DNA of 18,723 nt from a virus (Duplodnaviria > Heunggongvirae > Uroviricota > Caudoviricetes), in IMG/VR virus record IMGVR_UViG_2778261420_000008. One strand, written 5' to 3'. Each line of letters opens with the position of its first letter. Within the stretch, counting starts at the first letter, position 1. Of this stretch, positions 4,060-18,673 are shown one piece after another. The translations under genes were made by a program, and so were the position numbers. The notes beneath the pieces were generated by a model. That model worked only from the letters and a program-made list of their open reading frames with translations, ran no database searches and had not been told where the DNA came from.

Positions 4060-4817
4060 CTACACACACTGCTCCTGAAAATACTGGTCATCCAGTGCAA
4101 AGATCACTGCTTCAAATTCATCGCGCTCAATCAATACCGGATGAGTGGCTAAATATTCATTTATCTCTGTCAGAGATAAAGGCAAAGGCACCCCAGCCAT
4201 TCCAGCATAACGTCGGGCACGGGATATTACCGAATAGGCGTACAACAACTCCTTAAGCACCGGGTCTATTTCTGGTTCCGGTATCGGTGGCAACCTGAGT
4301 TTTTCTCGCTTCCATCTTGCCTTTTCCCCCCTTTCTCCCCCGAACTCCGATAACCACCGCTGGGCAGCTATGGCTTTTTTATCGTATCCTGCTTCTGCTG
4401 CTCTTTACCCTGGGCGATGCTGGCTGCTTCTGCAAGGATCTGCCAGTACAACTCTGGATTCTGCTTAAGCAGCGCGATCCCTCGTTCTGCCGTATATTCC
4501 AGTGCAACCTCAACACCATTAACCAGTTCACCAACCCCTTTCCAGTCTTTCAGCAGATAACGAGCGGCATTATCAATGAGTAAATCATCAACAGAATCCA
4601 CCTCGGAAACCTTTGAAATATCAAACTCCTTCGTTCCGACGTGCAAACTGGCATCCATTTTCTCAATGTGGCGACGGATTAATGCATTACGGGAGCGATA
4701 CTGATCGTTATCGCTGCTTGCCACCAACAGTTTTAACCCGTCTACAGGTTTTAAGTCCTTCATTGGCGTAAACCAGCGTTCTCCACCAATGATAATTTTC
4801 TGATTAAGAATAAACAT
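4060..4817 (-). CDS. tail assembly chaperone long form (lambda G-T-like fusion) made by a -1 frameshift at 4374..4380
   Basis: The zero-frame ORF 4368..4817 ends QDTIKKP-stop. The -1 frame is open from the slippery site through ...KKAIAAQRWLSEFGGERGEKARWKREKLRLPPIPEPEIDPVLKELL... to the stop at 4060 (verified codon by codon for 4261..4380). Position between major tail protein and tape measure is the canonical G/GT location. Confidence 0.7.
4368..4817 (-). CDS. tail assembly chaperone short form (gpG-equivalent), 149 aa
   Basis: Track ORF 4368..4829. The preferred start is the ATG at 4817..4815 (MFILNQKIIIGG...) because GAGG lies 7 nt upstream, whereas the track start at 4829 has no ribosome-binding site. 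Ends in the slippery heptamer context. Confidence 0.75.
   Translation of the reverse strand: MFILNQKIIIGGERWFTPMKDLKPVDGLKLLVASSDNDQYRSRNALIRRHIEKMDASLHVGTKEFDISKVSEVDSVDDLLIDNAARYLLKDWKGVGELVNGVEVALEYTAERGIALLKQNPELYWQILAEAASIAQGKEQQKQDTIKKP
4374..4380 (-). promoter_or_regulatory. programmed -1 ribosomal frameshift slippery heptamer A_AAA_AAG
   Basis: Minus-strand codons ...ACG ATA AAA AAG CCA TAG: the heptamer A AAA AAG sits two codons before the zero-frame stop, and the -1 frame continues open for about 105 codons. Same heptamer class as the E. coli dnaX frameshift site. Confidence 0.7.
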
Positions 4818-4877
4818 CCATAACCTCATTCAATGCGTCCCCCTGTAGGGCAGTACCACAGGAGGAATAACGGAAAA

Positions 4878-5840
4878 TCAACTAATCGCCTCAGCACTGG
4901 CTTTTGCGATCACGGCAGCCGGGGAATTTTTTTTTCTGGTTATCGTAGGTGCTTCATCTGCTGCGGTAATGCTCAATTGAACCTGGATAATGTCGCTATT
5001 ACCCCCATCAGGCCATTCACCTGACACCTGAACCTTCGGGAAACTGAAAGTGTATGCCCCCTCTCCATTCGAAAGCGTGAAGCTGAACGGAACTGTTTCT
5101 CCAGTCAGTGTTTTACTCCAGATTTCCCACGCGGCTTTAGACCATGAAAGCGTCACCGTACCGGACGGTGTAAAAGTAGTCGGAATATTTGCTCCTGCAT
5201 AAGGCGAGCCAGTCCCGATACAACGCTGTGTCTGGAGTTTGTTATCGAACTGAATATCAAAACTGTCGATACAAAAACCGTTACCTCCGGCAACACCATT
5301 CAGGCTTACTGCTGAAACCTCCTTAAACGAATAACGTAGCTTTCCTGCACTATCCACAGGTTCGCCTTTGATAAAATTCGTATCATCGGCCTTTGATTCC
5401 CAGTCCAGTCCGGCAAAGGTTACGGTCGCTGTAATATCGCCGTCGTTAGGGATCTGCATTTTCCATGAGCCAACCTGCGCTCCTCTGACGACAGAGGCAA
5501 TTCCGACATCGGACGCATAGGTCGCCAGAGAAAATGTTATTCGCTCATTCCCCATTGTCAGAGAATCGCCTGACCATTCCGCGCCGAAACAGGATGCAAG
5601 AAAATCATCATGTTGACCCCAGCGAAATTTGGTACCAACATCACCGCCGACATCCACAGTGCCAGGCGTCGCCCCCTGAGCCATCCGGGAGCCACCAATC
5701 TCATTATTTTCGCCTTTATTCTGGGTGGGTTTTACTCCCCAGCTTGTGCGTTTTAATAAACTCCAGTCACCACTTGCTGGCGTAGTGCCTGCAACCGTCT
5801 CCCGGATAAATGCCGAGATAACCTTTGCACCTGAACTCAC
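4878..5840 (-). CDS. major tail (tube) protein, 320 aa, GTG start
   Basis: Track ORF 4878..5840. Start codon at 5840..5838 is GTG, preceded by AGGAGG with 5-nt spacing. Lies immediately upstream of the chaperone frameshift gene, the conserved position of the major tail protein in siphophage tail modules. The sequence is not lambda gpV-like. Confidence 0.6.
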   Translation of the reverse strand: MSSGAKVISAFIRETVAGTTPASGDWSLLKRTSWGVKPTQNKGENNEIGGSRMAQGATPGTVDVGGDVGTKFRWGQHDDFLASCFGAEWSGDSLTMGNERITFSLATYASDVGIASVVRGAQVGSWKMQIPNDGDITATVTFAGLDWESKADDTNFIKGEPVDSAGKLRYSFKEVSAVSLNGVAGGNGFCIDSFDIQFDNKLQTQRCIGTGSPYAGANIPTTFTPSGTVTLSWSKAAWEIWSKTLTGETVPFSFTLSNGEGAYTFSFPKVQVSGEWPDGGNSDIIQVQLSITAADEAPTITRKKNSPAAVIAKASAEAIS

Positions 5841-5866
5841 AGGAGCCTCCTATGTCATTAATTGCG

Positions 5867-6259
5867 CTAGAGCGCGCGATATGGAATTTGAAGATTAAGC
5901 TGGAACCAGCCATTCTTTTCGCCAACGGCTATTGAGGAAACAGCCTGGTAACTGAGACGATCGTCATCCTGAAACTCAAACAGTTCCCGCAATTTATCGG
6001 CTGTCTCAGTAATGAGTTTTGAACCAGAACCTGCGGGGACAAATAACTGAATAATGATTATCCCCGTGCGATAAACAATCGGCCCCGCGCCAATTTCATT
6101 AACTCCAGCCTGCCCGGGAATATTACTTAACCGCGCCCAGATTAACTTACCGGAAGGATCGAACGTTGGCGCGTTCGGATACAATACGTCTTTTCCATCA
6201 ATAATCGTCTGTGCCGTCATTCTGGAAATAACCGTATTTCTGATTTCAGTAAACGTCAT
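5867..6259 (-). CDS. tail terminator / tail completion protein (gpU-equivalent by position), 130 aa
   Basis: Track ORF. ATGA start/stop overlap with the upstream gene at 6256..6259. Size and position between the head-tail joining genes and the major tail gene. Function assigned by synteny only. Confidence 0.5.
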   Translation of the reverse strand: MTFTEIRNTVISRMTAQTIIDGKDVLYPNAPTFDPSGKLIWARLSNIPGQAGVNEIGAGPIVYRTGIIIIQLFVPAGSGSKLITETADKLRELFEFQDDDRLSYQAVSSIAVGEKNGWFQLNLQIPYRAL

Positions 6260-6636
6260 TTGTAAGCCTGTAAAACACCATGAAAAGCGTTGGCATACAC
6301 GCCAGTTGGCGCTTGTTGTGAATGACCGTTTTCAAGAGCCTCTGCATAAGGAAGGTTATTCTGGATATAAATAACTCCGTAATTTGCAGCTTTCGAAATA
6401 ACCCCGATCCCACGCTGAACAGCAATCGTACCGTTCGGATCCACGTTATCAGATATACCAAAATCGGGATGCTGTAACGACACCAGGTTGTTATTTCTGA
6501 AACGTCCGGTATCAACCGGAGCAGCAATATCAATAGCAGTAAGAATCTGAATAGCGATGTAGCGAATCTTCAGCCCTACATCTTCCTCAATCATCCCGGC
6601 AAATATTGACGGTTCTATATCCCATGCCTTTGCCAT
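6256..6636 (-). CDS. head-tail joining protein (HK97 gp10-like by size and position), 126 aa
   Basis: Track ORF 6256..6636, translationally coupled to its neighbours. Assignment by synteny and size; family membership is a recollection, not a computed hit. Confidence 0.5.
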   Translation of the reverse strand: MAKAWDIEPSIFAGMIEEDVGLKIRYIAIQILTAIDIAAPVDTGRFRNNNLVSLQHPDFGISDNVDPNGTIAVQRGIGVISKAANYGVIYIQNNLPYAEALENGHSQQAPTGVYANAFHGVLQAYK

Positions 6637-7020
6637 TTACGCTCTCCTTAACTGGATAGAGTAAACTGATGCGGAAGGATCTACACTTGCTGTAATTACC
6701 TCGTATCGTTGTAACTGCCTTGATACAGGATCATAAATCTCAATAATATGGTCGACAGCTGGTTTATCCGTAACCTCGCATACCAGAGCGGTTAATTTAA
6801 GGTCACCATGCAAAATATTAATCCCATCAATTCTGCCCAGCTTATAACGTGTCAACACGCCTCGCCCGGTATAGATTGCGGTGGATTCGCCGCCAGTTTC
6901 CGTCACAGGATCCCAGTGCCGGTGCGTAACGTAAGAACCAGAAAAATCACTCACGGCGTCCGCTAAATCCTCATCAAAAGCAGCGGCAACCTCTGACTGA
7001 ATCTCTTCACGAAGCCCCAT
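6637..7020 (-). CDS. head-tail adaptor / head closure protein, 127 aa
   Basis: Track ORF 6637..7020, packed against neighbours with 0 to 1 nt spacing. Synteny-based call. Confidence 0.5.
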   Translation of the reverse strand: MGLREEIQSEVAAAFDEDLADAVSDFSGSYVTHRHWDPVTETGGESTAIYTGRGVLTRYKLGRIDGINILHGDLKLTALVCEVTDKPAVDHIIEIYDPVSRQLQRYEVITASVDPSASVYSIQLRRA

Positions 7021-7415
7021 TATCCCCCCCTCACAACCCTGACTTGTGAGCGACTAAGTCCGTACGGTTTCAGCAGTGCTATCGCAAGCTGTAAATCGGG
7101 TTCAAGCAATGCAGTGCTGTTTGCTGGCAACTCAGAAAATGATTTCGATACACTGACCCCGTCAGCCGACACGGCTTTACTGATAACAACGCCAGAATCA
7201 TTTTTCTGCTGAAACAACTTACCGAATGAGGCAATTCTGGCTGCATATGCTCCCGCAAGTTTTACCTCTTCCGGAATACGGGATGGGTTAATTTTCAGGT
7301 TGAAGCCATTAAGCCAGGCATTAGCCATTAAAACAGCTTTATTTTTAGCGTTCTCACTCGTCCAGGCGTTCCCAAACGCATTATCAACGTCATCACAGGT
7401 CACGTAAGTGATCAT
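7020..7415 (-). CDS. head-tail connector protein (gp6-like by position), 131 aa
   Basis: Track ORF 7020..7415. GGAG lies 7 nt upstream of the ATG at 7415. First gene of the head-tail joining block after the capsid gene. Confidence 0.5.
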   Translation of the reverse strand: MITYVTCDDVDNAFGNAWTSENAKNKAVLMANAWLNGFNLKINPSRIPEEVKLAGAYAARIASFGKLFQQKNDSGVVISKAVSADGVSVSKSFSELPANSTALLEPDLQLAIALLKPYGLSRSQVRVVRGG

Positions 7416-7418
7416 GTG

Positions 7419-7595
7419 TTACTCCTGAGTTTTCCAGCCCATAGCCTTCCAGTTGTCAACTTCATCAGGATGAACATTAGCGATAGTTGGTGCGCCGGGA
7501 AACATCTGATAATCGGTCACCATAACCACTAACTCAATTTGCGTTTTTTGTGCGGCTTCACGCTGTGCTCTTTGCTCTTTAGTTAATCCGGCCAT
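7419..7595 (-). CDS. small hypothetical protein, 58 aa (not in the ORF track)
   Basis: Manual translation gives MAGLTKEQRAQREAAQKTQIELVVMVTDYQMFPGAPTIANVHPDEVDNWKAMGWKTQE. GGGGGG lies 3 to 4 nt before the ATG, and the stop TAA is 3 nt before the ATG of the next gene (TAACACATG), suggesting translational coupling. Below the track length cut-off. Confidence 0.4.
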   Translation of the reverse strand: MAGLTKEQRAQREAAQKTQIELVVMVTDYQMFPGAPTIANVHPDEVDNWKAMGWKTQE

Positions 7596-7604
7596 ATGCC
7601 CCCC

Positions 7605-7627
7605 ATTAAAAATGGGGCCGAAGCCCC
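7605..7627 (-). terminator. intrinsic terminator immediately after the major capsid gene
   Basis: Minus-strand RNA GGGGC-UUCG-GCCCC (5-bp all-GC stem, UUCG tetraloop) followed by AUUUUUAAU, starting 11 nt after the capsid stop codon at 7638..7640. Confidence 0.5.
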
Positions 7628-7637
7628 GTTTGAATGT

Positions 7638-8777
7638 TTAACCAAGAATCAGACAACCATGTGCCGGCTTCACTGATGAAACACCCCATGCCAGTCCAAC
7701 TTCATAGCGCACCTGGCGATACTGACGATACAGTGCAATCTGGAACGTAATCCCTGAAATCGGGTCCGTAACATTCATTACATCATCAGCATTATCGCCA
7801 CCTTCCGGCATTGCCGGAGTACGGGATGCCAGCAGAAACGCGTTGCGATCAAACGCCATATTTGCCGTAAAGGCCCCAACAACTGTGATGGCAGTATCAT
7901 CGGCCAGATCCTGACGCAGTCCGGGCGCTGCAAGAGTAATCAGATTGCTGGTCGCTGCTGCCACAACATACTGATTCGGATCACCAGCGAACGTAACAAT
8001 CTGACCTGCAGAAATACTCCCCGAACCAGTATCAATGGAAATAAGAACATCGCCTTCTTTTTTCTCTCCATTCACGAGATAACCAGTTGCAGCAACCTTT
8101 GGCGCTCGTTTCACACCTGCCGAACTGTGAATATTGAATCCCTCCAGACGCCCCAACACGCCCTCACGCAGTAGCTGTTCAGTGCCGGATTCATTCACTT
8201 TAAACAATACAGACTGTTTTCCGCGCAAATTAGCAATGGCAGTGGAGCCAAGCACCATCTGCAGATCGGTTGTCGGTGCGCCGTTATCCTCCAGAACCTG
8301 ACGAGCCAGAGCAGCATCAGAAAGATCATCTTTAACACCAAACGGCGTTGTCCCTGCGGTTCCCACGGCGCGGGAAGCACCGAAATACAACGCACCAAGA
8401 TCAGCCTCAACCTCGTTTGCAAGGGCGCGAAAAGCCTGCTTGAACTGATCAGCCAGAATGGTGTTGTAAGTCCCTGAAGGGCCAAGAGCCAGTTGTTCTT
8501 CACCATTCCATTTAACCGGTGCCATTTTGGATTTAGTAATTTTTACATCAACAGTGCCAATATTTTGATCACCGGTATTCGGAGCTGACGGCCCCGGTAC
8601 GATATCTTCGGTTTTCGCCTCAGGCGCAACTGGCGCGGTTACCGTCTGATCTTTTGCTGCGGCGTCAGCTTTTACGTTTTTTGCTACCGCAGGGATAAAA
8701 CCTACCTGCTCACGGGATACAACATCCAGGGCGGTATAAATAGTCGGGATCAACCCGGTCAGGGTATTTCCAGCCAT
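7638..8777 (-). CDS. major capsid protein, 379 aa
   Basis: Track ORF 7638..8870, but the preferred start is the ATG at 8777..8775 (MAGNTLTGLIPTIY...) with AAGGAA 9 nt upstream. The longer track start would overlap the scaffold gene. Lies after portal, minor head and scaffold genes, with a terminator downstream as is typical for a highly expressed capsid gene. Confidence 0.75.
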   Translation of the reverse strand: MAGNTLTGLIPTIYTALDVVSREQVGFIPAVAKNVKADAAAKDQTVTAPVAPEAKTEDIVPGPSAPNTGDQNIGTVDVKITKSKMAPVKWNGEEQLALGPSGTYNTILADQFKQAFRALANEVEADLGALYFGASRAVGTAGTTPFGVKDDLSDAALARQVLEDNGAPTTDLQMVLGSTAIANLRGKQSVLFKVNESGTEQLLREGVLGRLEGFNIHSSAGVKRAPKVAATGYLVNGEKKEGDVLISIDTGSGSISAGQIVTFAGDPNQYVVAAATSNLITLAAPGLRQDLADDTAITVVGAFTANMAFDRNAFLLASRTPAMPEGGDNADDVMNVTDPISGITFQIALYRQYRQVRYEVGLAWGVSSVKPAHGCLILG

Positions 8778-8875
8778 AATTAAATATTCCTTAAAAATTT
8801 GCGTAATTGTGAATAGATGGAGTAATGAGCTATCCAGCCCTGACACCAGCTCCCATCCGGAAGCTGACAAATGTG

Positions 8876-9640
8876 TTAATCAACGATTGTGATACCGTCT
8901 TTCAATGCGTTTTGCTTACCTGCAACATCCAGTGCATCAAAAGCAGAGCGTTTCATCGTTTTCTGACCAATATCATGCTGTGTCGGACGGGAGCCGCCGC
9001 CATTGTTGCCACTGGCTTTCAGGATGTAGTCTTTCTGAGGGTAATTTTCGACAAGGAACTCCAGCGCCTCATCAAACTGCGCCAGTTCGCCAGGCTTCGC
9101 GCGGGAATAAATTTTGTTGCCGGAAGCGTCATAAGCAACGATCTTCCCTTCTTCCACTTTGAATGCCTGCCCGAAGCGGGCTTGTAATAAATCTGCCGGG
9201 ATCGCAATTTTATCGGCAATATATTTTGAACCCGCAAAACTACCGCCAATCATAGAATCGTAAAGCTGCGTCTCCAGCATCTGAGAGCGTTGCTTTTCTT
9301 CATCTAATTGCTGCTGAAAATTTTTCGTAATTTCTGCCTTAACCTGGTCAACCTGTCCCGCATCGATCAGCTTTTTCTGGTCGATTTTTAACAGCATTTC
9401 CAGTGCCTCGATCGCCTTCTTCGGGTCTTCGATAGCGGCAAACTTAGCCAGTTTTTCCTCTGCAGCTTCTTTAGCCAGGCGATGATTTTTTGCCTCGCCA
9501 TTAAGCTCTGTAATTTTTTTTATCGCCAGCGGTGCATCGAAGCCGATTTCTTTACCATCGTCGTGCACATAAACTGGCAGGCCAGCAGTATCAATTTCTG
9601 CGTATTGTTTTCCGTTAATCTCGACCGTTTTCAGTTTCAT
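8876..9640 (-). CDS. capsid scaffolding protein (putative), 254 aa
   Basis: Track ORF 8876..9712; the preferred start is the ATG at 9640..9638 (MKLKTVEINGKQYAEID...). Charged, helix-prone sequence (EEKLAKFAAIEDPKKAIEALEMLLKIDQKK..., EEKQRSQMLETQ) directly upstream of the major capsid gene. Confidence 0.55.
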   Translation of the reverse strand: MKLKTVEINGKQYAEIDTAGLPVYVHDDGKEIGFDAPLAIKKITELNGEAKNHRLAKEAAEEKLAKFAAIEDPKKAIEALEMLLKIDQKKLIDAGQVDQVKAEITKNFQQQLDEEKQRSQMLETQLYDSMIGGSFAGSKYIADKIAIPADLLQARFGQAFKVEEGKIVAYDASGNKIYSRAKPGELAQFDEALEFLVENYPQKDYILKASGNNGGGSRPTQHDIGQKTMKRSAFDALDVAGKQNALKDGITIVD

Positions 9641-9696
9641 ATTAGTACCTGGTTTAAGTCTTCCGACAGTTACGCTGCTCACCATCCGGATCGCAG

Positions 9697-9725
9697 CAAT
9701 AAAAAAGGCCACCCGAAGGTAGCCT
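9697..9725 (-). terminator. intrinsic terminator between the minor head protein gene and the scaffold gene
   Basis: Minus-strand RNA AGGCUACC-UUCG-GGUGGCCU (8-bp stem including one U-G wobble, UUCG tetraloop) followed by UUUUUUAUUG, about 20 nt after the stop at 9745..9747. Confidence 0.6.
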
Positions 9726-9744
9726 GTTGTAATAAATGATTTAT

Positions 9745-10860
9745 TTAAATCCCTGCTTTTCTGAATACCTGTGCATCACGCTCACGGAGTTGCTTCAGCG
9801 TCAGCCATTCGCCTTTATCGGTGTAAAATTCATCTGGCGACATACCGCCATCCCGAATCAGCTTTGCCCGGGTTTCCCCCACAATCTGTTTTTGTCTGGT
9901 GTAAGGCTGACGCAAAAACCATTCCCTGTAGGTTGTATCTCCGGCCACCACGCCATCCATGCTGGCCCGCTCAGCCGGGGAAATATCACGAACATCAATA
10001 CCCAGTTCCTTCGCTGATTTCAGAATGAACGTTTCCGTTGAGCGGCAGCAGAAATGAATTTTTCCCGGCCCATGCAAATAAGGCACACTGTGACCTACAG
10101 GTTTATTATCCAGCGTATATTTGAGGCGATCCCTGATTCGACATTGTGGCGTAGTACGATTATCAAGCGTTGATAACCATTGCTTACCCTTAATCAAATC
10201 ATTATTCGCGCTGGCAAAACTCTCACGGGCAGTAGCAGCAAGATGTCCAACCGCTGTTTTTGCAATGCTGGCCGCATTAGCCCGGCTCATCTGCAATGCA
10301 CCATCCTGAAATCCCTTGCTGACATGTCCCCGAATTTTTCTTGCGATCTGCTCATTGGTATCCCCCAGCAAAAAACCCTGACGCACCGTATTTGTTATGC
10401 GTCTGAGCCGATCCGCCTCAAGATCCAAGGCCCACTCACTGAGCAGTCGTCCCTGGAATGGTCGCGCCATTGCAGCGGCGTAAAGTGCATCAGAAGATAT
10501 ACCAACCAGAGGGTGAACATCAGCAACAAAATCAGGTAGCAGAGAATCAAACAGACTTAACTGATAACCAGCCTCATAAATTGCCAGCTCGTTCAGCTCT
10601 CCGGAGAGACTGGTAAACATGCTGTTAATAGCAGCGCGGTTAACCTCTCTGACACTCGCCAGAAGTGACTCCAGGCGCGTAACGGTAAAACTACCAGGAT
10701 CGAGGCTGTCCAGTGCTACCAGCAGGCGAGCTGTAAGCTCCGCATCGCTGTCATTCAGTATTTTCACCATTCTGGCAGCCACACCAGTGCTATAGCGGGA
10801 TATCCAGACTGCATGAGCAATTGATTCATCACGCAGCCGTTCATTCACGGTTTGCATCAT
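9745..10860 (-). CDS. minor head / head morphogenesis protein (Mu F / SPP1 gp7-like), 371 aa
   Basis: Track ORF. Lies immediately after the portal gene with a 20-nt overlap, the typical position of Mu F/SPP1 gp7-family proteins. Family assignment from recalled sequence character and synteny, not a computed profile hit. Confidence 0.6.
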   Translation of the reverse strand: MMQTVNERLRDESIAHAVWISRYSTGVAARMVKILNDSDAELTARLLVALDSLDPGSFTVTRLESLLASVREVNRAAINSMFTSLSGELNELAIYEAGYQLSLFDSLLPDFVADVHPLVGISSDALYAAAMARPFQGRLLSEWALDLEADRLRRITNTVRQGFLLGDTNEQIARKIRGHVSKGFQDGALQMSRANAASIAKTAVGHLAATARESFASANNDLIKGKQWLSTLDNRTTPQCRIRDRLKYTLDNKPVGHSVPYLHGPGKIHFCCRSTETFILKSAKELGIDVRDISPAERASMDGVVAGDTTYREWFLRQPYTRQKQIVGETRAKLIRDGGMSPDEFYTDKGEWLTLKQLRERDAQVFRKAGI

Positions 10861-12247
10861 TGATTTCCATCAACATTACACTCTGATTTTTTAATTCATC
10901 GATCACATCCTCTGGACGGGAATCCTGATCGATAAATTTCAACGCCTGCAACACCCGAACCGCATCAATCTGACGTATATCACCGCCCTGACGCAATGAC
11001 TGAACAGCCAGCGCGGAGGATGAGTCAAACACCTGGGCAGATACATCCAGTTCAGTGCGCACATCCACATTGCCACCGCAACTCTCTCCGCTCCATTCCG
11101 CCATTATCTGGAGAATATTATCGAGGGCATCTTCGAGGGAGTTCGCCATTGTATAAAGCGGCGAGTGTTCCTGCATCCGCTCTTCATTAGTCTGATCAAC
11201 AGATTTGGTGGATGTATTTTCAGCCCGCAGAAGTTTAGCGCCGGCATGACGCATCTGATTTTCCAGCTTCTCAAGTGATGTTTCGCCAGATTCTATCGCT
11301 GCGCCACTATGTTCAACATATTCGAGGCCATTTTTTGTTCTGTCCTCAAAAATCGTAGCCGTGGATGCACCAACCGTCAGTTCTTCATTCCTGTCCAGCC
11401 CGTAGGCCACCAGCAATGGAACGCGGGCAACATGAAGAATATTGTCCTGCTCGCTCTGGCTTTGCCAGTGCTTAATATTCAGCAAGCCAAGATTAAGCAA
11501 TGGCGGTGTACCACGCATAAACCCTGTTTTCTTCGTATACAGTGTTACCAGAGGAATATCATCACGGCTGGTATTCCATGACTCATGAAGCATCCAGACA
11601 GATTCGCCATTAGTACCTTCGCTGCGTCGATAAATTTCTACTCGACGGGGCATAATATGGCGGATCTGCTCCACCTTCTTCTGCCCGAAATCATCACCAT
11701 CAATAATGATGACCTCTTTTATACGCAAATCAGTGAGAACAACTTTCCCTTTTTCAACTTTCGATTTCCATCCAATAACCTGGCGTGGATTCAGCATCGT
11801 AACGTACGGGCGACCACCGGCCGCGTTTTCATCGGCTTTTGTCCGAATCTCGTTCATATCCGTTCGTGGATAGTCCACCAGCGCATGTGCCACACCATAC
11901 TGAAATGCGAGACTGAAAAATTGCTGCGCCCACACATCCAGTCGGCTCCCCTCCATGTCGATATTTTCTGCATATTCCCTGATTTTTTCCGGCGTTTCCT
12001 CACTCAATACTGTCGGCTCTGCAAATATGCGCCCAATATTTTGTTTGATGCTTTCTTCATACACAGGAAGTAACGTAGCCACAGACAGGCGTTTTTTATA
12101 AGCGTCTTCATCTTCATTAGGCCATTTGGGGAGATAATTTTCCCCCTGCCTGCGCATTTCAAGCGTACCGCCCATCAATGCGTCGTTAATATCCCACGCC
12201 TCCAGCATATCGTTATAGTCGAGGTTGGGTGTTGATATATCAGCCAT
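10841..12247 (-). CDS. portal protein, 468 aa
   Basis: Track ORF. Directly follows the large terminase gene (stop TAA, 2 nt, then ATG), with a size typical of portal proteins. Synteny-based. Confidence 0.7.
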   Translation of the reverse strand: MADISTPNLDYNDMLEAWDINDALMGGTLEMRRQGENYLPKWPNEDEDAYKKRLSVATLLPVYEESIKQNIGRIFAEPTVLSEETPEKIREYAENIDMEGSRLDVWAQQFFSLAFQYGVAHALVDYPRTDMNEIRTKADENAAGGRPYVTMLNPRQVIGWKSKVEKGKVVLTDLRIKEVIIIDGDDFGQKKVEQIRHIMPRRVEIYRRSEGTNGESVWMLHESWNTSRDDIPLVTLYTKKTGFMRGTPPLLNLGLLNIKHWQSQSEQDNILHVARVPLLVAYGLDRNEELTVGASTATIFEDRTKNGLEYVEHSGAAIESGETSLEKLENQMRHAGAKLLRAENTSTKSVDQTNEERMQEHSPLYTMANSLEDALDNILQIMAEWSGESCGGNVDVRTELDVSAQVFDSSSALAVQSLRQGGDIRQIDAVRVLQALKFIDQDSRPEDVIDELKNQSVMLMEINDANRE

Positions 12248-12249
12248 AA

Positions 12250-13551
12250 TTAAATCCGAAGTGATGTGACTCTTCCGGTCGGTTTGACAATAGGGAATTG
12301 CTTAACGATGAAATAACCTCCGGCATCATTCGGGTGATCATTGCCAGATTTTTTATCAGGCTCCCCCTTATCATCCCAGACCTGTTGCTCCAGAGATTCG
12401 GCATATACCGGACAACGCTTCACATTAACTTTATAGCGACGCTCACCATTGGCATTGCAGAACATTGCATTCATTGAGTTAACGCGATCTTTTACTGGCG
12501 GGTTCGAGCTGTTCACCACAACGTTAAAACCTGCCTGCTTAAGCTGGGCTATATCCGTCGTACTTGCGTTACTTGATTTTCTGGAATCTCCGGAAGCATC
12601 TGGATAAATATAAATCTCCCTCACTTTCCGGTAATCATGCCCGTCATACAGCCAGAAGCGTTCTTTAATGAGGCGGATCATATCCGGCGTATCGTAGGCA
12701 TTGATGATTTCAGTTACCGCACATGGAAGCCCCAAACGCAGCACATGGACGATTCCCGCCATCTTTCCAACGTTAAAATCCATCCCAATATAAATCGGCT
12801 CCCCTGGCTGCTCCACTTCTTCGCAATTATTCAGTTTCCGGTCAAACTGATGGTAAACAGTACCACTTGTCAGGTTAGTAAACCGTCCTAGAAGATAGGC
12901 TTTAATCAGCTCTGGAGGGTATGATTCAAGAAGTGAAGGAATGTAATCTGCTGGCAGGTTCTTTTCATTATCGAAAGTAGATGCCTGCACCAGACCATAC
13001 AGTGAGGCCAGCTCTGTTTTTTCACGCACGGCTTTAACAAACTGCTCGTAGACAAATTTGAATCCTTCCGGCGTGGTTGTAACGTCAATACCGTTGCGAA
13101 GTCCATCAATCTTATAACGCATACGCGCAATTATCTTGCGCCACGCCGTTCTGGCTTTTTCCTTCGGCAAAATGTCCAGTTCATCCACCAGCGCATTACC
13201 AATTTTGAAACCGACGATCGTTTGTGGCTTCTCCATCGATCTGCAGATAGTGGTTCCCCGATACTGGCGTCCGTAATAAAAGTGAACCTCTTTATTTCCC
13301 TCATTAATTTTTACGTTCAATCCCCAGTCAGCAGCAACTTCTTCCACTGTAGGGTAAAAAATATCGCGAATTTGGGGATACGTTGGCGCAAAATATCCCT
13401 GATTTATACCTGGATGCTCCCAAATCCCCTTGCATATGCCGCCACACCCAACCCATGTTTTGCCCGAGCCAAAACCAGCAATATAGGCTTTAAATTTATG
13501 GGGCATTGAAAGAAATCGCGCCTGAGGCACATTAAGCGTCGGAGAGATCAT
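12250..13551 (-). CDS. terminase large subunit, 433 aa
   Basis: Track ORF 12250..13560. Walker A motif AGFGSGKTW near the N-terminus and a Walker B-like LVDELD. Preferred start is the ATG at 13551 (MISPTLNV...) because AAGGAG lies 8 nt upstream; the track start at 13560 is GTG with no spacing. Overlaps the small terminase by 20 nt. Confidence 0.85.
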   Translation of the reverse strand: MISPTLNVPQARFLSMPHKFKAYIAGFGSGKTWVGCGGICKGIWEHPGINQGYFAPTYPQIRDIFYPTVEEVAADWGLNVKINEGNKEVHFYYGRQYRGTTICRSMEKPQTIVGFKIGNALVDELDILPKEKARTAWRKIIARMRYKIDGLRNGIDVTTTPEGFKFVYEQFVKAVREKTELASLYGLVQASTFDNEKNLPADYIPSLLESYPPELIKAYLLGRFTNLTSGTVYHQFDRKLNNCEEVEQPGEPIYIGMDFNVGKMAGIVHVLRLGLPCAVTEIINAYDTPDMIRLIKERFWLYDGHDYRKVREIYIYPDASGDSRKSSNASTTDIAQLKQAGFNVVVNSSNPPVKDRVNSMNAMFCNANGERRYKVNVKRCPVYAESLEQQVWDDKGEPDKKSGNDHPNDAGGYFIVKQFPIVKPTGRVTSLRI

Positions 13552-14626
13552 CTTCATCACTCCTTAATCTGGCATCAACCACATTAATATTGATCGCCAC
13601 AGGCTGGGGATGTTCATTATCCTCCACCGTTTCGATCTCTTTGCGCAGCTTCTGGTTCTCTATTCTGCGCCGTTCAATTTCCAGTTCCTGTAGCCGCTTA
13701 TCTGCACATAATGCCCCGCCAGCAGAAAGCAAACGCAACAATTCACGCCGGGCGGCAGCCTTATCCTCCAGCAGGATCTCAACACCGTATTTTCCGAGCT
13801 TTGACCCTGCATATAATTGCCGCGCATCCCCATCAAGCAGTGTGGTATCAGCCATATAAAGCTGTCCTGTTCCCTCACCGCAGCACTTCGGGCAATCAGG
13901 ATTGGGTATGGCGTTATCAACAAAGCCGAGGCCTCCATATTCCGGCTCGGGTTTACCATCTCTGGAGGCCTGTGCCGCAGCCTTATCGAATTCTGCAATA
14001 TCACGCCACTGGTAGAGATGATTCTCGCCCCAGCAATAACGGCAGTTAACACGGCGAAATTGTGCCAACTGATTGGGGTCGGCCTGGACAATGGCCATCA
14101 ACTGGCTCACCAGTAAATCCAGGTCTGCGGTATAGCGTTTCTGGTACTGATTGCGGAAGTAGCTGATAGCACGATAAACCCTGGCATTTCTAAGCATACG
14201 GCTGGCGTTGCTGTTAGCTGTCGCACCTTGCCCCTCATAACCAGCCAGTCGGTATGCCTCTGTCGGCTTTTTCCCCTGAGCAACCAACATGGCGAATTTT
14301 GCCTGCTGGTCAGAAATACCGAATTCATCGGGGCAGAACGAAATTTCTTCCGTGTCCCCCTCAATCAGGAGTGCATCGGATACAGCCTTTTTTTTCTGAG
14401 ATTTTCCGTTCTGCCTTTGCGCAGTCTGCGCAGTTTTTTTTCGCGCACTTTTTTGCGCAGTTTTGCGCATTTCTTTCTGCGCATTTTTCGGAGTTTTTTT
14501 GATGTAACGACGGGCTGTTGCGTAGTTCAGTCCCCTTGCTTCACACCATGCCACCGGAGATATACCGGAGCGGGTGTATTCAGCAATATACTCCTGCTGC
14601 AACGCCCCCCAGTCCGGTCTGCTCAT
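13532..14626 (-). CDS. terminase small subunit (N-terminal HTH-like region, central Terminase_2-like motif, C-terminal Cys-rich putative zinc ribbon), 364 aa
   Basis: Track ORF. The central EAYRLAGYEGQGATANSNASRMLRNARVYRAISYF resembles the small-terminase signature I recall; the C-terminal part carries CRYC...CPKCC. Sits immediately upstream of, and overlapping, the large terminase gene. Contains a lysine-rich low-complexity linker encoded by the TGCGCA repeat cluster. Confidence 0.7.
   Translation of the reverse strand: MSRPDWGALQQEYIAEYTRSGISPVAWCEARGLNYATARRYIKKTPKNAQKEMRKTAQKSARKKTAQTAQRQNGKSQKKKAVSDALLIEGDTEEISFCPDEFGISDQQAKFAMLVAQGKKPTEAYRLAGYEGQGATANSNASRMLRNARVYRAISYFRNQYQKRYTADLDLLVSQLMAIVQADPNQLAQFRRVNCRYCWGENHLYQWRDIAEFDKAAAQASRDGKPEPEYGGLGFVDNAIPNPDCPKCCGEGTGQLYMADTTLLDGDARQLYAGSKLGKYGVEILLEDKAAARRELLRLLSAGGALCADKRLQELEIERRRIENQKLRKEIETVEDNEHPQPVAININVVDARLRSDEDDLSDA
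14418..14483. repeat. cluster of six palindromic TGCGCA-type hexamers (five exact, one CGCGCA), each followed by a T-run, inside the small-terminase coding sequence
   Basis: Exact TGCGCA at 14418, 14427, 14454, 14464 and 14478; CGCGCA at 14442; spacings 9 to 15 bp. On the coding strand it encodes the basic linker KNAQKEMRKTAQKSARKKTAQTAQRQ. Confidence 0.8.
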
Positions 14627-14629
14627 CAG

Positions 14630-14881
14630 TTAGTCCTGATTTTTATCCACCCTGAGTAGTTCGCGCAGAGCAAAGGCATCCCCTTTTCTGGCAAGCTTAA
14701 ACAATGCCGCTCGTAACTCGGCTTCACCTTTCGCTCTGCCCTTACGGATGGCCGCATAAAAATCTGTCATTGCTTCCCGATTTTCTTTCAGTCGGTTCAG
14801 ATCAACATCCAGAACGTCAGCGATTTGTTGTGCAGTCATCCGGCACGCTGCCAGAGACTCGACTTTCGAATACGGAATCAT
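14630..14881 (-). CDS. small hypothetical protein, possible HTH DNA-binding / packaging accessory protein, 83 aa
   Basis: Track ORF. GGGGGTG lies 5 nt before the ATG at 14881, and the stop is 3 nt before the small-terminase ATG. The segment MTAQQIADVLDVDLNRLKE looks like a helix-turn-helix. Overlaps the 3-prime end of the upstream gene by 65 nt in another frame. Confidence 0.5.
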   Translation of the reverse strand: MIPYSKVESLAACRMTAQQIADVLDVDLNRLKENREAMTDFYAAIRKGRAKGEAELRAALFKLARKGDAFALRELLRVDKNQD

Positions 14882-15749
14882 TTGTCACCCCCATTGATAT
14901 GCAGGGTGTCTTCTTCCTGTATTTTTCGTGAAGGATTTTTACTGCAGCGTTGTTCCAGGTGACCTGATGGTGAATGCGTTTATGGCTGGCACCCATCAGT
15001 GAGATTTTTACGCACGACGGCGAATACATGACGGAGTAAAAACTTTTAACGTAGGTTCCGGAATCCAGATACAGCTCGGTCATTCCGCCGCTGTTTTTCT
15101 GCGTCTGTTTCTGCCCTAACTGGACAGCACCGATCGTCATAAACAATTCACCACAGCGACCGAGATTCGTGTACGTATTCACATCCTCGTTAATGCGCCC
15201 CATGAATGAGAACGGTCGATCAACCGAACAGATAAAGCTGTTCATTGCCTTGCGTTTCACCCACGAAGCATGGCCGCCATTGTCACCAAGAAAATCCCCG
15301 CCCTGCGACATAGCGATGGAAAGCGCGGGTATTGATTCGTAATACGCCAGCATTTCAGAAAGGATCGCATCCAGTTTCCTTATCGGGAAATAGGCCTGGT
15401 CATAGTTGCGATCCACCCGAAACTGGAACTCGTGATAATCATCATCGAGCTGAATGAAGTATTTACACCCGACCAGTTTTGCCAGGTCGAAACAGGCATT
15501 ACGGGCGTAAAAAATTGAGCGGCGATCACCAAAATTATCGGCTTCGTCAAAACGACTGGCAATATCGGCTTTGGAAAATACCAGCACCTGTTCACCAAAT
15601 TCAGCCATGTACTGATGCCGTGTCTTATCTTCATCATCAACAACGATAAAAATTTTCCCGGTATAGCCAGCACGACGCAACGTCCGGTAAGTCAGAACTT
15701 TGTCCGGTCGCCCGTGAGTCAGAATAAAGGCGCAAAAATCATCACGCAT
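14817..15749 (-). CDS. soluble GT-A-like (family 2-like) glycosyltransferase-like protein, 310 aa; function unknown
   Basis: Track ORF 14817..15773. Preferred start is the ATG at 15749 (MRDDFCAFILTHGRP...), preceded by GGAGGAGGAGGAGGAA. N-terminal FILTHGRPDKV...GKIFIVVDDED and the later KYFIQLDDDY resemble the two acidic motifs of GT-A glycosyltransferases as I recall them. No long hydrophobic segments. May correspond to the K-12 Rac ydaY remnant (recollection). Confidence 0.55.
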   Translation of the reverse strand: MRDDFCAFILTHGRPDKVLTYRTLRRAGYTGKIFIVVDDEDKTRHQYMAEFGEQVLVFSKADIASRFDEADNFGDRRSIFYARNACFDLAKLVGCKYFIQLDDDYHEFQFRVDRNYDQAYFPIRKLDAILSEMLAYYESIPALSIAMSQGGDFLGDNGGHASWVKRKAMNSFICSVDRPFSFMGRINEDVNTYTNLGRCGELFMTIGAVQLGQKQTQKNSGGMTELYLDSGTYVKSFYSVMYSPSCVKISLMGASHKRIHHQVTWNNAAVKILHEKYRKKTPCISMGVTNDSVFESRVSGSVPDDCTTNR

Positions 15750-16536
15750 ATTCCTCCTCCTCCTCCCCGCCATGCATGATCTCCACCATGCGCTGCGTCA
15801 TTCGGACAAATCCATTTTCAATAGCCTGCTGATAATCAATGATCACCAGCGCCGACTCCTCGAAAAGGCACTGAATTTCAGCGGGGGCATGAGCGTAATA
15901 GTCCGCAATTCTGCTGAAATTAAACACTGTGTGACGTTCTGCCGCACACAGGAGGAATTTCTCAATATCAGGATCAAGGGACGCCGAACGTATCCGGCTG
16001 ATCAGCTCCTGAGTTTTCGTATCGTCGTACAGTTCACTGATATCCGGTTTACCGCCCGACGGCTCATAAACAGGCGTATCAATTTTCGTCGTATACGGCT
16101 CCTCCTCATTTCCTGTACCGGGCAAAACATCCGTCAACAGTTCATCAATTTCTGTCGGGATGAAGCCTGTCAGGGAGACATCAAAATCAGCATTGATTAG
16201 GTCCGACAGCTCCATCCGCAACAGATCTTCATCCCAGCCAGCATTCATCGGCAGGCGATTATCTGCCAGGCGGTACGCCTTTTTCTGCTCATCCGTCAGG
16301 CCAGACAGAACAATGACCGGAACAGAATCCATTTTGAGCATTTCAGCCGCCATAACACGACCGTGACCCGCAATAATTTCGCCCTTTTCGTCAATCAGCA
16401 CCGGATTAGTCCAGCCGAATTGCTTAATACTTTCTACCAGTTGTGCCACCTGCTCAGGGCTGTGCGTCCTGGCGTTGTGCGCATACGGTGACAATTCTTG
16501 TAATGGGCGATAGACTATCTTTAATTTCTCGCTCAT
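15742..16536 (-). CDS. ParB-like nuclease domain (ParB/Srx fold) protein with acidic C-terminal tail, 264 aa
   Basis: Track ORF. N-terminal YRPLQELSPYAHNARTHSPEQVAQLVESIKQFGWTNPVLIDEKGEIIAGHGRVMAA carries the GxGR motif characteristic of the ParB N-terminal domain. AAGG lies 8 nt before the ATG at 16536. C-terminus is GGEEEEEYA. May correspond to K-12 Rac ynaK (recollection). Confidence 0.75.
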   Translation of the reverse strand: MSEKLKIVYRPLQELSPYAHNARTHSPEQVAQLVESIKQFGWTNPVLIDEKGEIIAGHGRVMAAEMLKMDSVPVIVLSGLTDEQKKAYRLADNRLPMNAGWDEDLLRMELSDLINADFDVSLTGFIPTEIDELLTDVLPGTGNEEEPYTTKIDTPVYEPSGGKPDISELYDDTKTQELISRIRSASLDPDIEKFLLCAAERHTVFNFSRIADYYAHAPAEIQCLFEESALVIIDYQQAIENGFVRMTQRMVEIMHGGEEEEEYA

Positions 16537-16550
16537 ACAGCCTTGCTTTA

Positions 16551-16587
16551 TGAATAAAACGCACCCCAGCAGCCAGTGCTACTGGGG
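16551..16587 (-). terminator. intrinsic terminator downstream of trkG
   Basis: Minus-strand RNA CCCCAGUAGC-ACUG-GCUGCUGGGG (10-bp stem with one U-G wobble, 4-nt loop) followed by UGCGUUUUAUUCA, about 90 nt after the trkG stop and directly before the ribosome-binding site of the ParB-like gene. Confidence 0.6.
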
Positions 16588-16673: not shown

Positions 16674-18131
16674 TTAGGAGCGCCAAAAAAAACCTGAAAA
16701 CAATATAATAACAGGATAAATTTCAAGGCGACCAAGAATCATAGCTATGCACATTAAACATTTTGCAATGTCATTAAGCACTCCGAATGACGATGCAGTA
16801 GCCCCAAAACCTAATCCCATATTATTAATACATGCAGCCACTGTTGCAAATGATGTAAGAAAATCATATCCCATACCATTTAACACCAGTATAAAAAACA
16901 CCGTGAAGAGAGTATAAAGAAAAAAGAAACTCCATACAGACCTCATTACACGATCTGTAACTATCTTCCCTCCTACATTTACACTCAACAACGCTCTGGG
17001 ATGAGAAAGCTGATTTATCTCGTGTTTGCTTTGTTTGAAAAGTATAAGAAATCGAAGTGACTTAATTCCACCACAAGTTGAACCTATACATCCCCCAAAG
17101 AAACTTGACAACAGCAAAAACACTATCGTGTGCGTGGGCCAACTTGCATAATCCTGCGTAGCTAAACCATTATCAGTGAGCATGGAGCTGGCAAGAAAAA
17201 ACGAATGAATAAAACTTCCATGCAAGTCATACATACCTATATGCCAGACCTGGAAAGAGGTAACAATGATCACCCCTAAGGCTATTAACAGAAAGAAACG
17301 AAGTTCAATATCTCTGATTAAAGGTTTTATCGTTTTCCTGCTAATAACAATATACCAAAGAGTGAAGTTGAAAGCCGATAGCAGGGAAAAAGAACCAGCC
17401 ACCAGCTCAACCAAATAGTTATTAAAATATCCGATACTCTCGCTATGAGTTGAGAAACCACCAAGCGAAACTGTGGAAATCCCGTGACAAATAGCATCAA
17501 ACAAAGGCATTCCTGCAAGTCTATAACAGACAATACAAGCAATACCTAATAAAGAATAAGTTATCCACAGTGTCCGTGACGTATCGGCCAGGCGGGGAGT
17601 GAGTTTGTCATCCTTAAATGGCCCCGGCATTTCTGACTGATAAAGCTTTGCACCACCAATACCCAATAATGGCAATACAGCAACCGCCAGAACAATAACT
17701 CCTAAACCACCTATAAAATTTAACTGTGACCGATAGTACAAATATGCCCGAGGTAATGAACTAACATCATCAATTACAGTTGCTCCTGTTGTTGTTATTC
17801 CAGAAACCCCTTCAAACAGAGCATCAATGAACGTTAAATTAAGTTCTGAGTCAATCCATAAAGGGAATGCACTAATAACAGAAAACAAAATCCAAAACAT
17901 TACAATTATAATAAACCCATCACGGGTACGTAATTGAATGCCAGATTTCTTAGTTGTATACCACGCTCCGCCACCAATGCAAAAAAATATAACGAAAGTT
18001 ATAAAGAAAACGAACAGGCTTTTTTCTTTATAAAACAATGCTACAACCATTGGTGGCAACATTGAAAGACTATAGAGCCAAACCAGGAACCCACACATAT
18101 GAGTAACAACTCTTACATGAGATGTATTCAT
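16674..18131 (-). CDS. trkG: TrkH-family potassium uptake protein TrkG, 485 aa
   Basis: Track ORF 16674..18149; the ATG at 18131 gives MNTSHVRVVTHMCGFLVWLYSL..., which I recognise as E. coli TrkG. Strong similarity to TrkH throughout (SGITTTGATV, LYQSEMPGPFKDDK, GGFSTHSESIGYF, FGRLEIYP). The track start at 18149 is TTG and rejected. Visibly AT-rich compared with neighbouring phage genes. Confidence 0.9.
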   Translation of the reverse strand: MNTSHVRVVTHMCGFLVWLYSLSMLPPMVVALFYKEKSLFVFFITFVIFFCIGGGAWYTTKKSGIQLRTRDGFIIIVMFWILFSVISAFPLWIDSELNLTFIDALFEGVSGITTTGATVIDDVSSLPRAYLYYRSQLNFIGGLGVIVLAVAVLPLLGIGGAKLYQSEMPGPFKDDKLTPRLADTSRTLWITYSLLGIACIVCYRLAGMPLFDAICHGISTVSLGGFSTHSESIGYFNNYLVELVAGSFSLLSAFNFTLWYIVISRKTIKPLIRDIELRFFLLIALGVIIVTSFQVWHIGMYDLHGSFIHSFFLASSMLTDNGLATQDYASWPTHTIVFLLLSSFFGGCIGSTCGGIKSLRFLILFKQSKHEINQLSHPRALLSVNVGGKIVTDRVMRSVWSFFFLYTLFTVFFILVLNGMGYDFLTSFATVAACINNMGLGFGATASSFGVLNDIAKCLMCIAMILGRLEIYPVIILFSGFFWRS

Positions 18132-18268
18132 ATCTAAATATTCTTTCAATTATAACCACCTTGCTGCAATATTATGATTATACTGTATAAAATTTAACTC
18201 CTCTTAGATCTTACTTCACTGTTCCTTATGAAACAATCATCAAAATGAATCATATTGTAGTTAAGATT

Positions 18269-18673
18269 TTACTTTAAACACTGCTCGGTTATGTATTGCT
18301 GAGCACCTTCAAGTTGGGCCTGCATCATTACCAGTCGTTCCCGGAGGGTGAAATAATCCCGTTCAGCGGTGTCTGCCAGTCGGGGGGAGGCTGCATTATC
18401 CACGCCGGAGGCGGTGGTGGCTTCACGCACTGACTGACAGACTGCTTTGATGTGCAACCGACGACGACCAGCGGCAACATCATCACGCAGAACATCATTT
18501 TCAGCTTTCGCATCAGCTAACTCCTTCGTGTATTTTGCATCGAGCGCAGCAACATCACGCTGACGCATCTGCATGTCAGTAATTGCCGCGTTCGCCAGCT
18601 TCAGTTCTCTGGCATTTTTGTCGCGCTGTTCTTTGTAGGCGATGGCTGGATTTGCCCCTATATTTCCAGACAC
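18269..18673 (-). pseudogene. rzpR: Rz-type i-spanin lacking its N-terminal transmembrane segment (5-prime truncated, likely pseudogene)
   Basis: Track ORF. The protein from [51 protein letters not shown]... matches lambda Rz from memory, but the frame opens with GTG at 18673 immediately after an in-frame TAA (18677..18679). None of the three frames upstream to the window end encodes a hydrophobic segment. Confidence 0.7.
18328..18513 (-). CDS. rzoR: Rz1-type o-spanin outer-membrane lipoprotein, 61 aa, embedded in the +1 frame of the Rz gene
   Basis: Track [27 protein letters not shown]... has a signal peptide and lipobox (VVGC), followed by the proline-rich [15 protein letters not shown], nearly identical to lambda Rz1 from memory. 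Entirely nested in the Rz reading frame. Confidence 0.85.

Follow-up and report, generated by a model that had tools for sequence, protein, structure and literature searches.

A conserved phage gene pair coding for a TAGT-family glycosyltransferase and a ParB-like partner: a candidate module for the glycosylation of phage DNA

Glycosylation of DNA is a classic counter-defence of phages, one that until now has been connected with hydroxymethylated pyrimidines. The subject of our analysis is a pair of overlapping minus-strand genes, situated in front of the terminase genes of a Rac-like E. coli prophage, a Caudoviricetes sequence (IMG/VR record IMGVR_UViG_2778261420_000008; the whole stretch of 18,723 nt that was analysed is called the window below), that code for a glycosyltransferase of the TET-associated glycosyltransferase (TAGT) family and for a ParB-like partner protein. 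With a probability of roughly one half, we read this pair as a late-expressed, ParB-assisted, post-replicative glycosylation module for phage DNA, and we claim no particular acceptor for the sugar. In the characterised systems the sugar is placed on a hydroxymethyl pyrimidine or on a sugar already attached to one, and the hydroxymethyl base is made either by a deoxynucleoside monophosphate (dNMP) hydroxymethylase or by a methylase together with a Tet-like dioxygenase. Among the characterised phage TAGT/GT-A enzymes, those acting on DNA include the T2/T6 beta-glucosyl-HMC-alpha-glucosyltransferase (HMC: hydroxymethylcytosine), which adds a second glucose to DNA and belongs to the same Pfam family (PF20691) as the transferase of the window, and the 5-hydroxymethylcytosine (5hmC) glycosyltransferases from metaviromes (Burke 2021; Pyle 2024). 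The transferase of the window resembles these enzymes in its Pfam family, its GT-A fold and its R...DDD...ED residues; like them it is soluble, phage-encoded and sometimes found with sugar-tailoring genes. It differs in two respects: the described enzymes use hydroxymethylcytosine or its glucoside and come with acceptor-making enzymes, none of which accompanies this pair, and an obligate partner (a ParB-like protein or its C-terminal domain) is a property of the present subfamily that was not reported for the characterised TAGT/GT-A DNA glycosyltransferases.

For the partner, the precedent is an orphan ParB-like protein that is needed for the activity of a phage thymine dioxygenase on double-stranded DNA (O'Toole et al., PNAS 2026). 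Compared by description only, the two have in common a domain of nucleotide-binding type, an unstructured linker, a C-terminal domain and the lack of a helix-turn-helix (HTH), as well as a position adjoining a (here putative) post-replicative DNA-modifying enzyme, often near terminase genes. Among the 70 informative loci of our survey (79 species-representative loci, of which 70 offer 850 nt or more of sequence ahead of the transferase gene), the partner adjoins its client enzyme, the transferase, in 66 and lies nearby in the other 4. This client is a glycosyltransferase, as opposed to the 5-methylpyrimidine dioxygenase of O'Toole et al., who found ParB-dependent dioxygenases together with kinases and amino-acid transferases, and glycosyltransferases together with the ParB-independent subclass; a ParB-partnered transferase is therefore a different combination. 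The N-terminal domain of the partner also occurs in ParB-fused phage DNA methyltransferases (PHROG 498; PADLOC MTase_II; Kaljevic et al. 2025), which are enriched in prophages and are presumably recruited to DNA or retained on it by this domain in the way proposed here for the partner. Those enzymes are single polypeptides, whereas the cassette consists of two overlapping genes and has a distinct linker and C-terminal domain. With the partition protein ParB, Noc and KorB, the partner shares the fold of the N-terminal domain, and the positions of their nucleotide-binding residues are conserved in part; unlike them, it comes without ParA, HTH DNA-binding domain or parS-type context, and its box II reads GHGR, not GERR. 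GREB1 contains the same glycosyltransferase domain family but is a large eukaryotic protein that attaches O-linked N-acetylglucosamine (O-GlcNAc) to a transcription factor. The Gtr-type O-antigen transferases of prophages, in turn, are membrane-embedded and have flippase and bactoprenol-transferase partners, while the cassette has no hydrophobic segment and no Gtr genes near it. A preliminary description of this DNA could name no described system with such a composition, which was too strong a statement: TAGT exists as a Pfam family, the association of ParB genes with DNA modification and terminases has been discussed since Iyer et al. 2013 (a passage in Burke 2021 cites that work for ParB genes adjoining DNA-modification genes and terminases), and a ParB activator was demonstrated in 2026. 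In the literature searched, we found no paper addressing this specific pair. Both protein families had already been described; what we did not meet in that literature is a TAGT enzyme locked to a partner made of ParB domain, linker and C-terminal domain, with an invariant linker motif, no hydroxylase, and a spread over multiple phyla and an archaeal virus.

The pair, its domains and the genes that follow it are arranged in the window as listed here:

15742-16536, minus strand: ParB-like partner gene (264 amino acids)
14817-15749, minus strand: TAGT-family GT-A glycosyltransferase gene (310 amino acids)
16132-16536, minus strand: ParB N-terminal domain of nucleotide-binding type, partner residues 1-135 (the confidently modelled region)
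16060-16095, minus strand: linker motif Y148-T-T-K-I-D-T-P155-V-Y157-E-P of the partner, recognised by conservation and predicted to be disordered
15772-16029, minus strand: helical domain at the C-terminus of the partner, approximately residues 170-255, always found adjoining the transferase
15742-15749, minus strand: overlap ATGCGTGA of 8 nt, with the transferase start inside the partner stop (read from the sequence)
15751-15768, minus strand: Shine-Dalgarno run GGGGAGGAGGAGGAGGAA for the transferase gene (likewise read directly)
14630-14881, minus strand: open reading frame (ORF) for a small-terminase-like HTH protein (83 amino acids)
13532-14626, minus strand: terminase small subunit, as context (Pfam Terminase_2 and PHROG 51)
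12250-13560, minus strand: terminase large subunit, as context (Pfam Terminase_6N and Terminase_6C)

The 310-aa protein matches the Pfam TAGT profile with 121.5 bits (cut-off 27.5; E 6e-35), covering positions 4-205 of its 205, and PHROG 842 with E 1.5e-103. The NCBIfam profiles gave nothing informative for it, and the PADLOC defence models no match, the only hit there being that of the partner's ParB domain to a methyltransferase model. AlphaFold 2 models of both proteins were built on 17-sequence alignments, each being confident in part only. The transferase model adopts a GT-A fold, confident at residues 1-215, and a Foldseek search with it returned SpsA and other GT-A chains from the PDB and phage TAGT proteins from BFVD. 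Conservation, here and below, refers to 57 sequences from many phyla. Residues R14, D38, D41, D102-D104, Y105, N187 and D189 are conserved at 97% or more and correspond to the R...DDD...ED signature of those GT-A enzymes of phages whose substrate is 5hmC in DNA; the third motif reads EDV in this subfamily, not EDY/F. The soluble GT-A-like glycosyltransferase with acidic motifs that the preliminary description had seen is thus borne out by profiles (Pfam and PHROG), model, Foldseek and conservation alike: the protein stays in a glycosyltransferase family under profile search, the aspartates are kept, and FILTHGRP (from residue 8), FIVVDDED (34) and FIQLDDDY (98) are present in the transferase, as is GHGR (57) in the ParB-like protein. 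Neither protein shows a membrane segment, the top Kyte-Doolittle mean over 19 residues being 1.08 for the transferase and 1.25 for its partner. The transferase is basic (median isoelectric point 8.7) and the partner acidic (median 4.6).

The ParB-type N-terminal domain ascribed to the partner was recovered as well, by Pfam (ParB_N, PF02195: 28.9 bits against a cut-off of 26.3, E 1.2e-6), by PHROG 620 (E 1.5e-90) and by Foldseek, where the model found Noc, CTP-bound ParB, KorB and PadC at E 1e-6 to 1e-5. The GxGR motif reads GHGR. Residues N21-x-R23, G57-H-G-R60 and D92-N93 are the counterparts of ParB boxes I to III and are mostly conserved (N21 in 55/57, G57 in 56/57, R60 in 47/57 and N93 in 55/57). 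The same domain matches the N-terminus of phage DNA methyltransferases, namely PHROG 498 with E 1e-50 and PADLOC MTase_II at positions 13-151 with E 2.5e-38. Partition proteins are matched poorly: the partner reaches 38.5 bits with the partition model TIGR00180 (cut-off 58.45), the NCBIfam partition models stay far under their cut-offs, and ParA is absent from every neighbourhood examined. No HTH Pfam match was obtained in the partner, and the model has only two helices between N-terminal domain and linker. The most conserved feature of the protein is the linker, with the consensus Y148-[TS]-x-K-I-x-x-P155-x-Y157: Y148, P155 and Y157 occur in 57/57 sequences, T/S149 in 56/57 and K151 in 46/57, and the confidence score of the model (pLDDT, predicted local distance difference test) lies below 50 over residues 137-170. 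A search with linker plus C-terminal domain gave 1,195 representative clusters (50% identity) at E<=1e-3, in which this segment nearly always terminates ParB-type proteins of about 260 aa. A ParB-TAGT fusion was found neither in the loci nor among the top 150 representative hits of that search.

The two genes are linked without exception. Searches over one genome per species (GTDB) and IMG/VR found relatives of the transferase at 45-80% identity in Proteobacteria, Bacteroidota, Firmicutes, Verrucomicrobiota, Kiritimatiellia, Acidobacteriota, Actinobacteriota, bacteria of the candidate phyla radiation and others, and also on more than 584 viral contigs. All 70 informative loci have the partner adjoining or near the transferase: a full-length partner directly upstream in 59, an adjoining partner made of linker and C-terminal domain only in 7 (one of which, in Shigella, looks like a broken gene), and a partner at some remove in 4, with either a single inserted gene or a short gap between it and the transferase; in two of these 4 the insert is a second TAGT gene. 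The partner was never seen without the transferase in the loci examined. Cultured carriers are the Lactobacillus phages phi jlb1, c5, LL-Ku, phiLdb and others, Nocardia phage NTR1, and the haloarchaeal virus HHTV-2 (Haloarcula hispanica tailed virus 2), in which the pair is formed by the overlapping genes 21 and 22 (L167:5196-6858), 2.9 kb upstream of the large terminase gene, and the transferase is 43% identical to that of E. coli. In Vibrio jumbo phages, pv27 (L169:4459-5888) among them, and in the metagenomic contig L170 (6001-7376), a partner of 124-139 aa without ParB domain stands directly before the transferase, and a ParB-less partner likewise lies directly upstream in several loci from metagenome-assembled genomes (MAGs). 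The constant unit is therefore transferase plus linker plus C-terminal domain: since the partners of the jumbo-phage type consist of linker and C-terminal domain alone, the ParB domain is a usual, not an obligatory, N-terminal addition. A conserved third partner was not found when the neighbour ORFs of at least 80 loci were clustered: no gene recurs in more than 19 loci, and the recurring neighbours are terminase, portal, methylase, single-stranded DNA-binding protein and replication genes only. The pairwise distances of the two proteins correlate moderately (r 0.55), a value not used as evidence. As a separate observation, loci L171 (373-2042) and L172 (916-2585) have, upstream of the transferase, the ParB N-terminal domain (141 aa) and the linker with C-terminal domain (147 aa) as separate overlapping ORFs, either a genuine split or a frameshift.

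The gene order first reported, three minus-strand genes with overlaps of 8 and 65 nt and a gap of 3 nt to the terminase, was read again from the sequence and found as claimed. The strong Shine-Dalgarno run GGAGGAGGAGGAGGAA, whose coding letters are the poly-Glu tail of the ParB-like protein, lies directly 5' of the 8-nt overlap, and the 83-aa ORF stops 3 nt ahead of the small-terminase ATG at 14626. Overlaps and gap are real because the starts are conserved in homologs: MRDDF begins the transferase in 16/16 aligned homologs, and MIPY begins the relatives of the 83-aa ORF. A 318-aa reading of the transferase from 15773 was rejected on the same ground, all aligned homologs beginning at MRDDF, and the 69-aa start given by RefSeq for the small ORF was rejected as too short, the MIPY N-terminus being conserved. 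That both genes are real and not chance ORFs follows from the 45-80% identity held by their homologs across bacterial phyla. The 8-nt overlap implies that the translation of partner and transferase is coupled; overlaps of 8 to 26 nt between the two genes are also found in loci L002, L003 and L005, in HHTV-2 and in phi jlb1. The 65-nt overlap of the transferase gene with the 83-aa ORF, by comparison, is confined to the E. coli lineage: it results from a C-terminal extension of about 22 aa on the transferase of E. coli that is absent in relatives. A promoter-like site inside the transferase gene (15534-15562, minus strand; TTGCCA, a 17-nt spacer and GATAAT, 10/12 matches) may be due to chance; such sites are fewer in the region than in shuffled controls.

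The mechanism that we propose runs as follows. Through its linker and C-terminal domain, the acidic partner would bind the basic transferase, and the ParB domain, to argue by analogy with the activator of the thymine dioxygenases and with the methyltransferase fusions, would bring the enzyme to double-stranded phage DNA or hold it there, possibly in a nucleotide-dependent manner. The transferase, going by its family membership, would then transfer a sugar from a nucleotide-sugar to the DNA. Because the translationally coupled genes head the late packaging operon, replicated DNA would be modified just before or during packaging, and the glycosylated virion DNA could be protected against restriction in the next host. 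Family and fold, the ParB partner, the strict linkage, the DNA-centred contexts, the tailoring genes and the basic transferase all count for DNA glycosylation. The tailoring genes occur in some loci only and comprise a second TAGT, a TAGT-methyltransferase fusion, a radical S-adenosylmethionine (SAM) enzyme and a sugar epimerase/dehydratase. In a Hyphomonadaceae MAG (L147; 3581-5275 and 5190-6161), two tandem TAGT genes stand behind the ParB-like gene, the first of which codes for a fusion ending in a SAM-dependent methyltransferase domain (Methyltransf_23/11). Five phage loci of Clostridia type have a radical SAM enzyme of 311-329 aa (CxxxCxxC) directly after the transferase (L143:9860-10819, L144:9830-10819, L145:2695-3630, L159:2095-3084 and L166:9866-10825), and one of these, L144, has two tandem TAGT genes besides. 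Such genes are typical of hypermodification clusters and suggest that the glycan is elaborated, but an obvious hydroxylase is not among them. If the DNA is indeed modified, temperate coliphages carry an overlooked DNA modification with a bearing on restriction, CRISPR, sequencing and phage therapy, and a second enzyme class, after the dioxygenases, depends on a ParB-type partner.

Several points weigh against DNA glycosylation by the pair. The bases of unmodified DNA offer no hydroxyl group that could accept a sugar. In the complete Rac-like prophage of strain DSM 103246, the annotation shows neither a Tet/JBP dioxygenase nor a thymidylate-synthase-like hydroxymethylase nor a DNA methylase, and the same is true of phi jlb1 (complete genome, 38 kb), where the ORFs left unassigned are too short for one. 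Within 5 kb upstream of the pair (51 loci, 138 ORFs), neither these enzymes nor a 2OG oxygenase appear in the 25 Pfam families listed out of 88 that were matched, a survey that divergent dioxygenases can escape. Clustering of the neighbour ORFs did detect C5 methylases in 12 loci and N6/N4 methylases in 9. About 65% of the contigs with GT-A- or GT-B-type transferases had no neighbouring dioxygenase or hydroxymethylase in the work of Pyle et al., who left this unexplained. GREB1, an animal TAGT protein, glycosylates a protein, namely the estrogen receptor alpha (ER-alpha), so that TAGT membership alone does not fix the acceptor, and the literature searched contained no experiment on this TAGT subfamily. 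As to the partner, box II is GHGR, with Glu replaced by His or Asn and the first Arg of the canonical GERR by a variable residue, which makes CTP binding and hydrolysis uncertain; in addition, the protein is acidic, and no DNA-binding domain can be recognised in it. Model confidence was low for the last 95 residues of the transferase and likewise for the partner's C-terminal domain, and these parts of the models carry no conclusions. The DNA-directed activity suggested in the preliminary description thus stands in part: the ParB-like partner fits it, as does the fact that the characterised phage members of the family act on DNA, and the absence of the usual acceptor-making enzyme does not. A bold and rather doubtful version would have the sugar put directly on a canonical base, the backbone or the DNA ends, with ParB assistance and without prior hydroxymethylation, a kind of modification not yet described, which would then occur in temperate phages of many bacterial phyla, including Rac-like prophages, and in a haloarchaeal virus.

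The genes around the pair bear on its autonomy. In most loci it stands immediately upstream of terminase genes, and the preliminary description considered a packaging accessory role like that of the HNH partners of other terminases and a survey of whether the pair accompanies one terminase type. Scanning the first two large ORFs after the pair in the 62 loci whose downstream sequence was long enough gave Terminase_6N in 25, Terminase_3 in 14, GpA in 4-5 and TerL_ATPase in 2, together with matches to five portal families. At least four large-terminase families thus follow a pair that itself keeps 45-80% identity. In the jumbo or large phages (pv27, L170), the neighbours of the pair are genes for primase, exonuclease, helicase and DNA polymerase B, with no terminase nearby. 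The pair is therefore not bound to one type of terminase, and the HNH-like role is not supported; with unrelated packaging enzymes downstream, a specific terminase partnership is disfavoured and an autonomous, late-expressed cassette favoured. The small HTH protein had at first been counted as a third member of the module. It matches PHROG 309 ('terminase small subunit') at positions 145-218 of 319 (E 8e-23), is homologous to the N-terminal HTH part of proteins of 123-139 aa that directly follow the transferase in other phages, and occurs only in enterobacterial and a few other lineages; its gene belongs, to judge by these matches, with the packaging genes and not with the conserved pair, which is a unit of two genes. 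On the other side of the pair lies trkG (16674-18149), a low-GC insert with 37.8% G+C as against 48-50% for the pair and 46.6% for the window, and between the two is the following element:

16564-16587, minus strand: terminator-like hairpin after trkG, with a 10-bp stem (7 G-C pairs) and a T-rich tail

The hairpin is 28 nt upstream of the partner ATG, and because it lies between, the pair may be expected on an antiterminated late transcript and not on one from trkG.

Four other explanations have to be weighed against the glycosylation of phage DNA. The transferase might O-glycosylate a protein instead, the most obvious candidate being its own partner at the invariant Tyr/Thr residues in the linker (glycogenin-like or GREB1-like), with another phage or host protein as a possible target too. 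This would need no hydroxylated base, the very thing that is missing; it has the precedent of GREB1 and the O-GlcNAcylation of ER-alpha, and would agree with the hydroxyl-rich character of the partner's most conserved feature (Y148, T/S149, Y157), which lies in a segment predicted to be disordered. All characterised phage members of the family, however, use DNA-linked acceptors, DNA is also suggested by the ParB domain and by the two genomic contexts, and an invariant linear motif is explained equally well as a docking peptide. We consider protein glycosylation rather doubtful; were it true, the pair would be a bacterial-virus counterpart of GREB1. The missing hydroxylase would also be explained if the pair acted on foreign DNA that already contains hydroxymethyl or glucosyl-hydroxymethyl bases, for example that of a superinfecting T-even-like phage, to the protection or competitive advantage of the prophage. 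The T2/T6 member of the family does use glucosyl-hydroxymethylcytosine DNA as its acceptor, and Pyle et al. raise the idea of prophage transferases hypermodifying invading genomes. Against this, the pair heads a late packaging operon and is parted by the terminator-like hairpin from the lysogenically expressed trkG, so that lysogens would not be expected to express it; the cassette, moreover, is found in lytic jumbo phages and in hosts without known hydroxymethylcytosine phages. An action on foreign DNA is improbable on these grounds.

Even less can be said for the remaining two. A ParB-like protein that binds or nicks the packaging site and helps the terminase, as HNH proteins do with those of HK97 type, the transferase being incidental, would suit the position directly upstream of the terminase genes in most loci. 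Such a role is very unlikely for a pair that is 45-80% identical in front of at least four large-terminase Pfam families (Terminase_6N, Terminase_3, GpA and TerL_ATPase), whose jumbo-phage version lies in replication modules and has a partner without ParB domain, and whose partner never occurs without the transferase in the loci examined. That the pair is a decayed, functionless leftover of a dioxygenase-ParB-transferase cluster of three genes is hardly credible. Clusters of dioxygenases often contain transferase, ParB and terminase genes, it is true, and K-12 Rac lost the pair without known consequence; yet about 50 residues of the transferase and 23 of the partner are near-invariant in the 57 sequences, the ORFs are intact and their overlaps conserved, at least 80% of the region is kept in 866 E. 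coli genomes, and the 2026 study links ParB-dependent dioxygenases to kinases and amino-acid transferases, not to glycosyltransferases.

The loss in K-12 can be traced. Compared with the window, the Rac prophage of MG1655 (L175) has a deletion of 11.56 kb (window 4720-16282) that takes out the genes for transferase, terminase, portal, head and tail tube, and that joins ynaK, consisting of the first ~84 codons of the ParB-like gene (window 16283-16536), to the ydaY ORF. The latter comes from an ORF at 4368-4829, which has the tail tube gene on one side and the tape measure gene on the other, and ydaY as a remnant of the transferase was rejected on this account. Of the two K-12 genes that had been taken for remnants at this position, ynaK is therefore one and ydaY comes from elsewhere. 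The 2.2-kb region of the pair is matched in 1,610 of 5,426 complete E. coli genomes (over at least 80% of its length in the 866 mentioned above) and in ten phage records at 98.7-98.9% identity. Its annotation is poor: RefSeq names the transferase 'hypothetical protein' or 'GREB1-related protein', lists the intact 264-aa gene of the partner, in genomes that match the window at 100% identity, as a partial 'ynaK' pseudogene (L001, NZ_CP019944.1, 21780-22037), and starts the 83-aa gene 14 codons too late (L001, NZ_CP019944.1, 20131-20340).

Two further observations concern the surroundings of the pair. In phi jlb1 (L174:11350-12746), 1.4 kb without any ORF above 73 aa separate the late transcriptional activator from the ParB-like gene; this stretch may be a packaging site, a place of RNA genes or something different. 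At the far end of the window, a 61-aa lipoprotein-like ORF (18328-18513) lies in another frame of a 134-aa Rz-like ORF (18269-18673), forming a nested lysis pair of Rz/Rz1 type.

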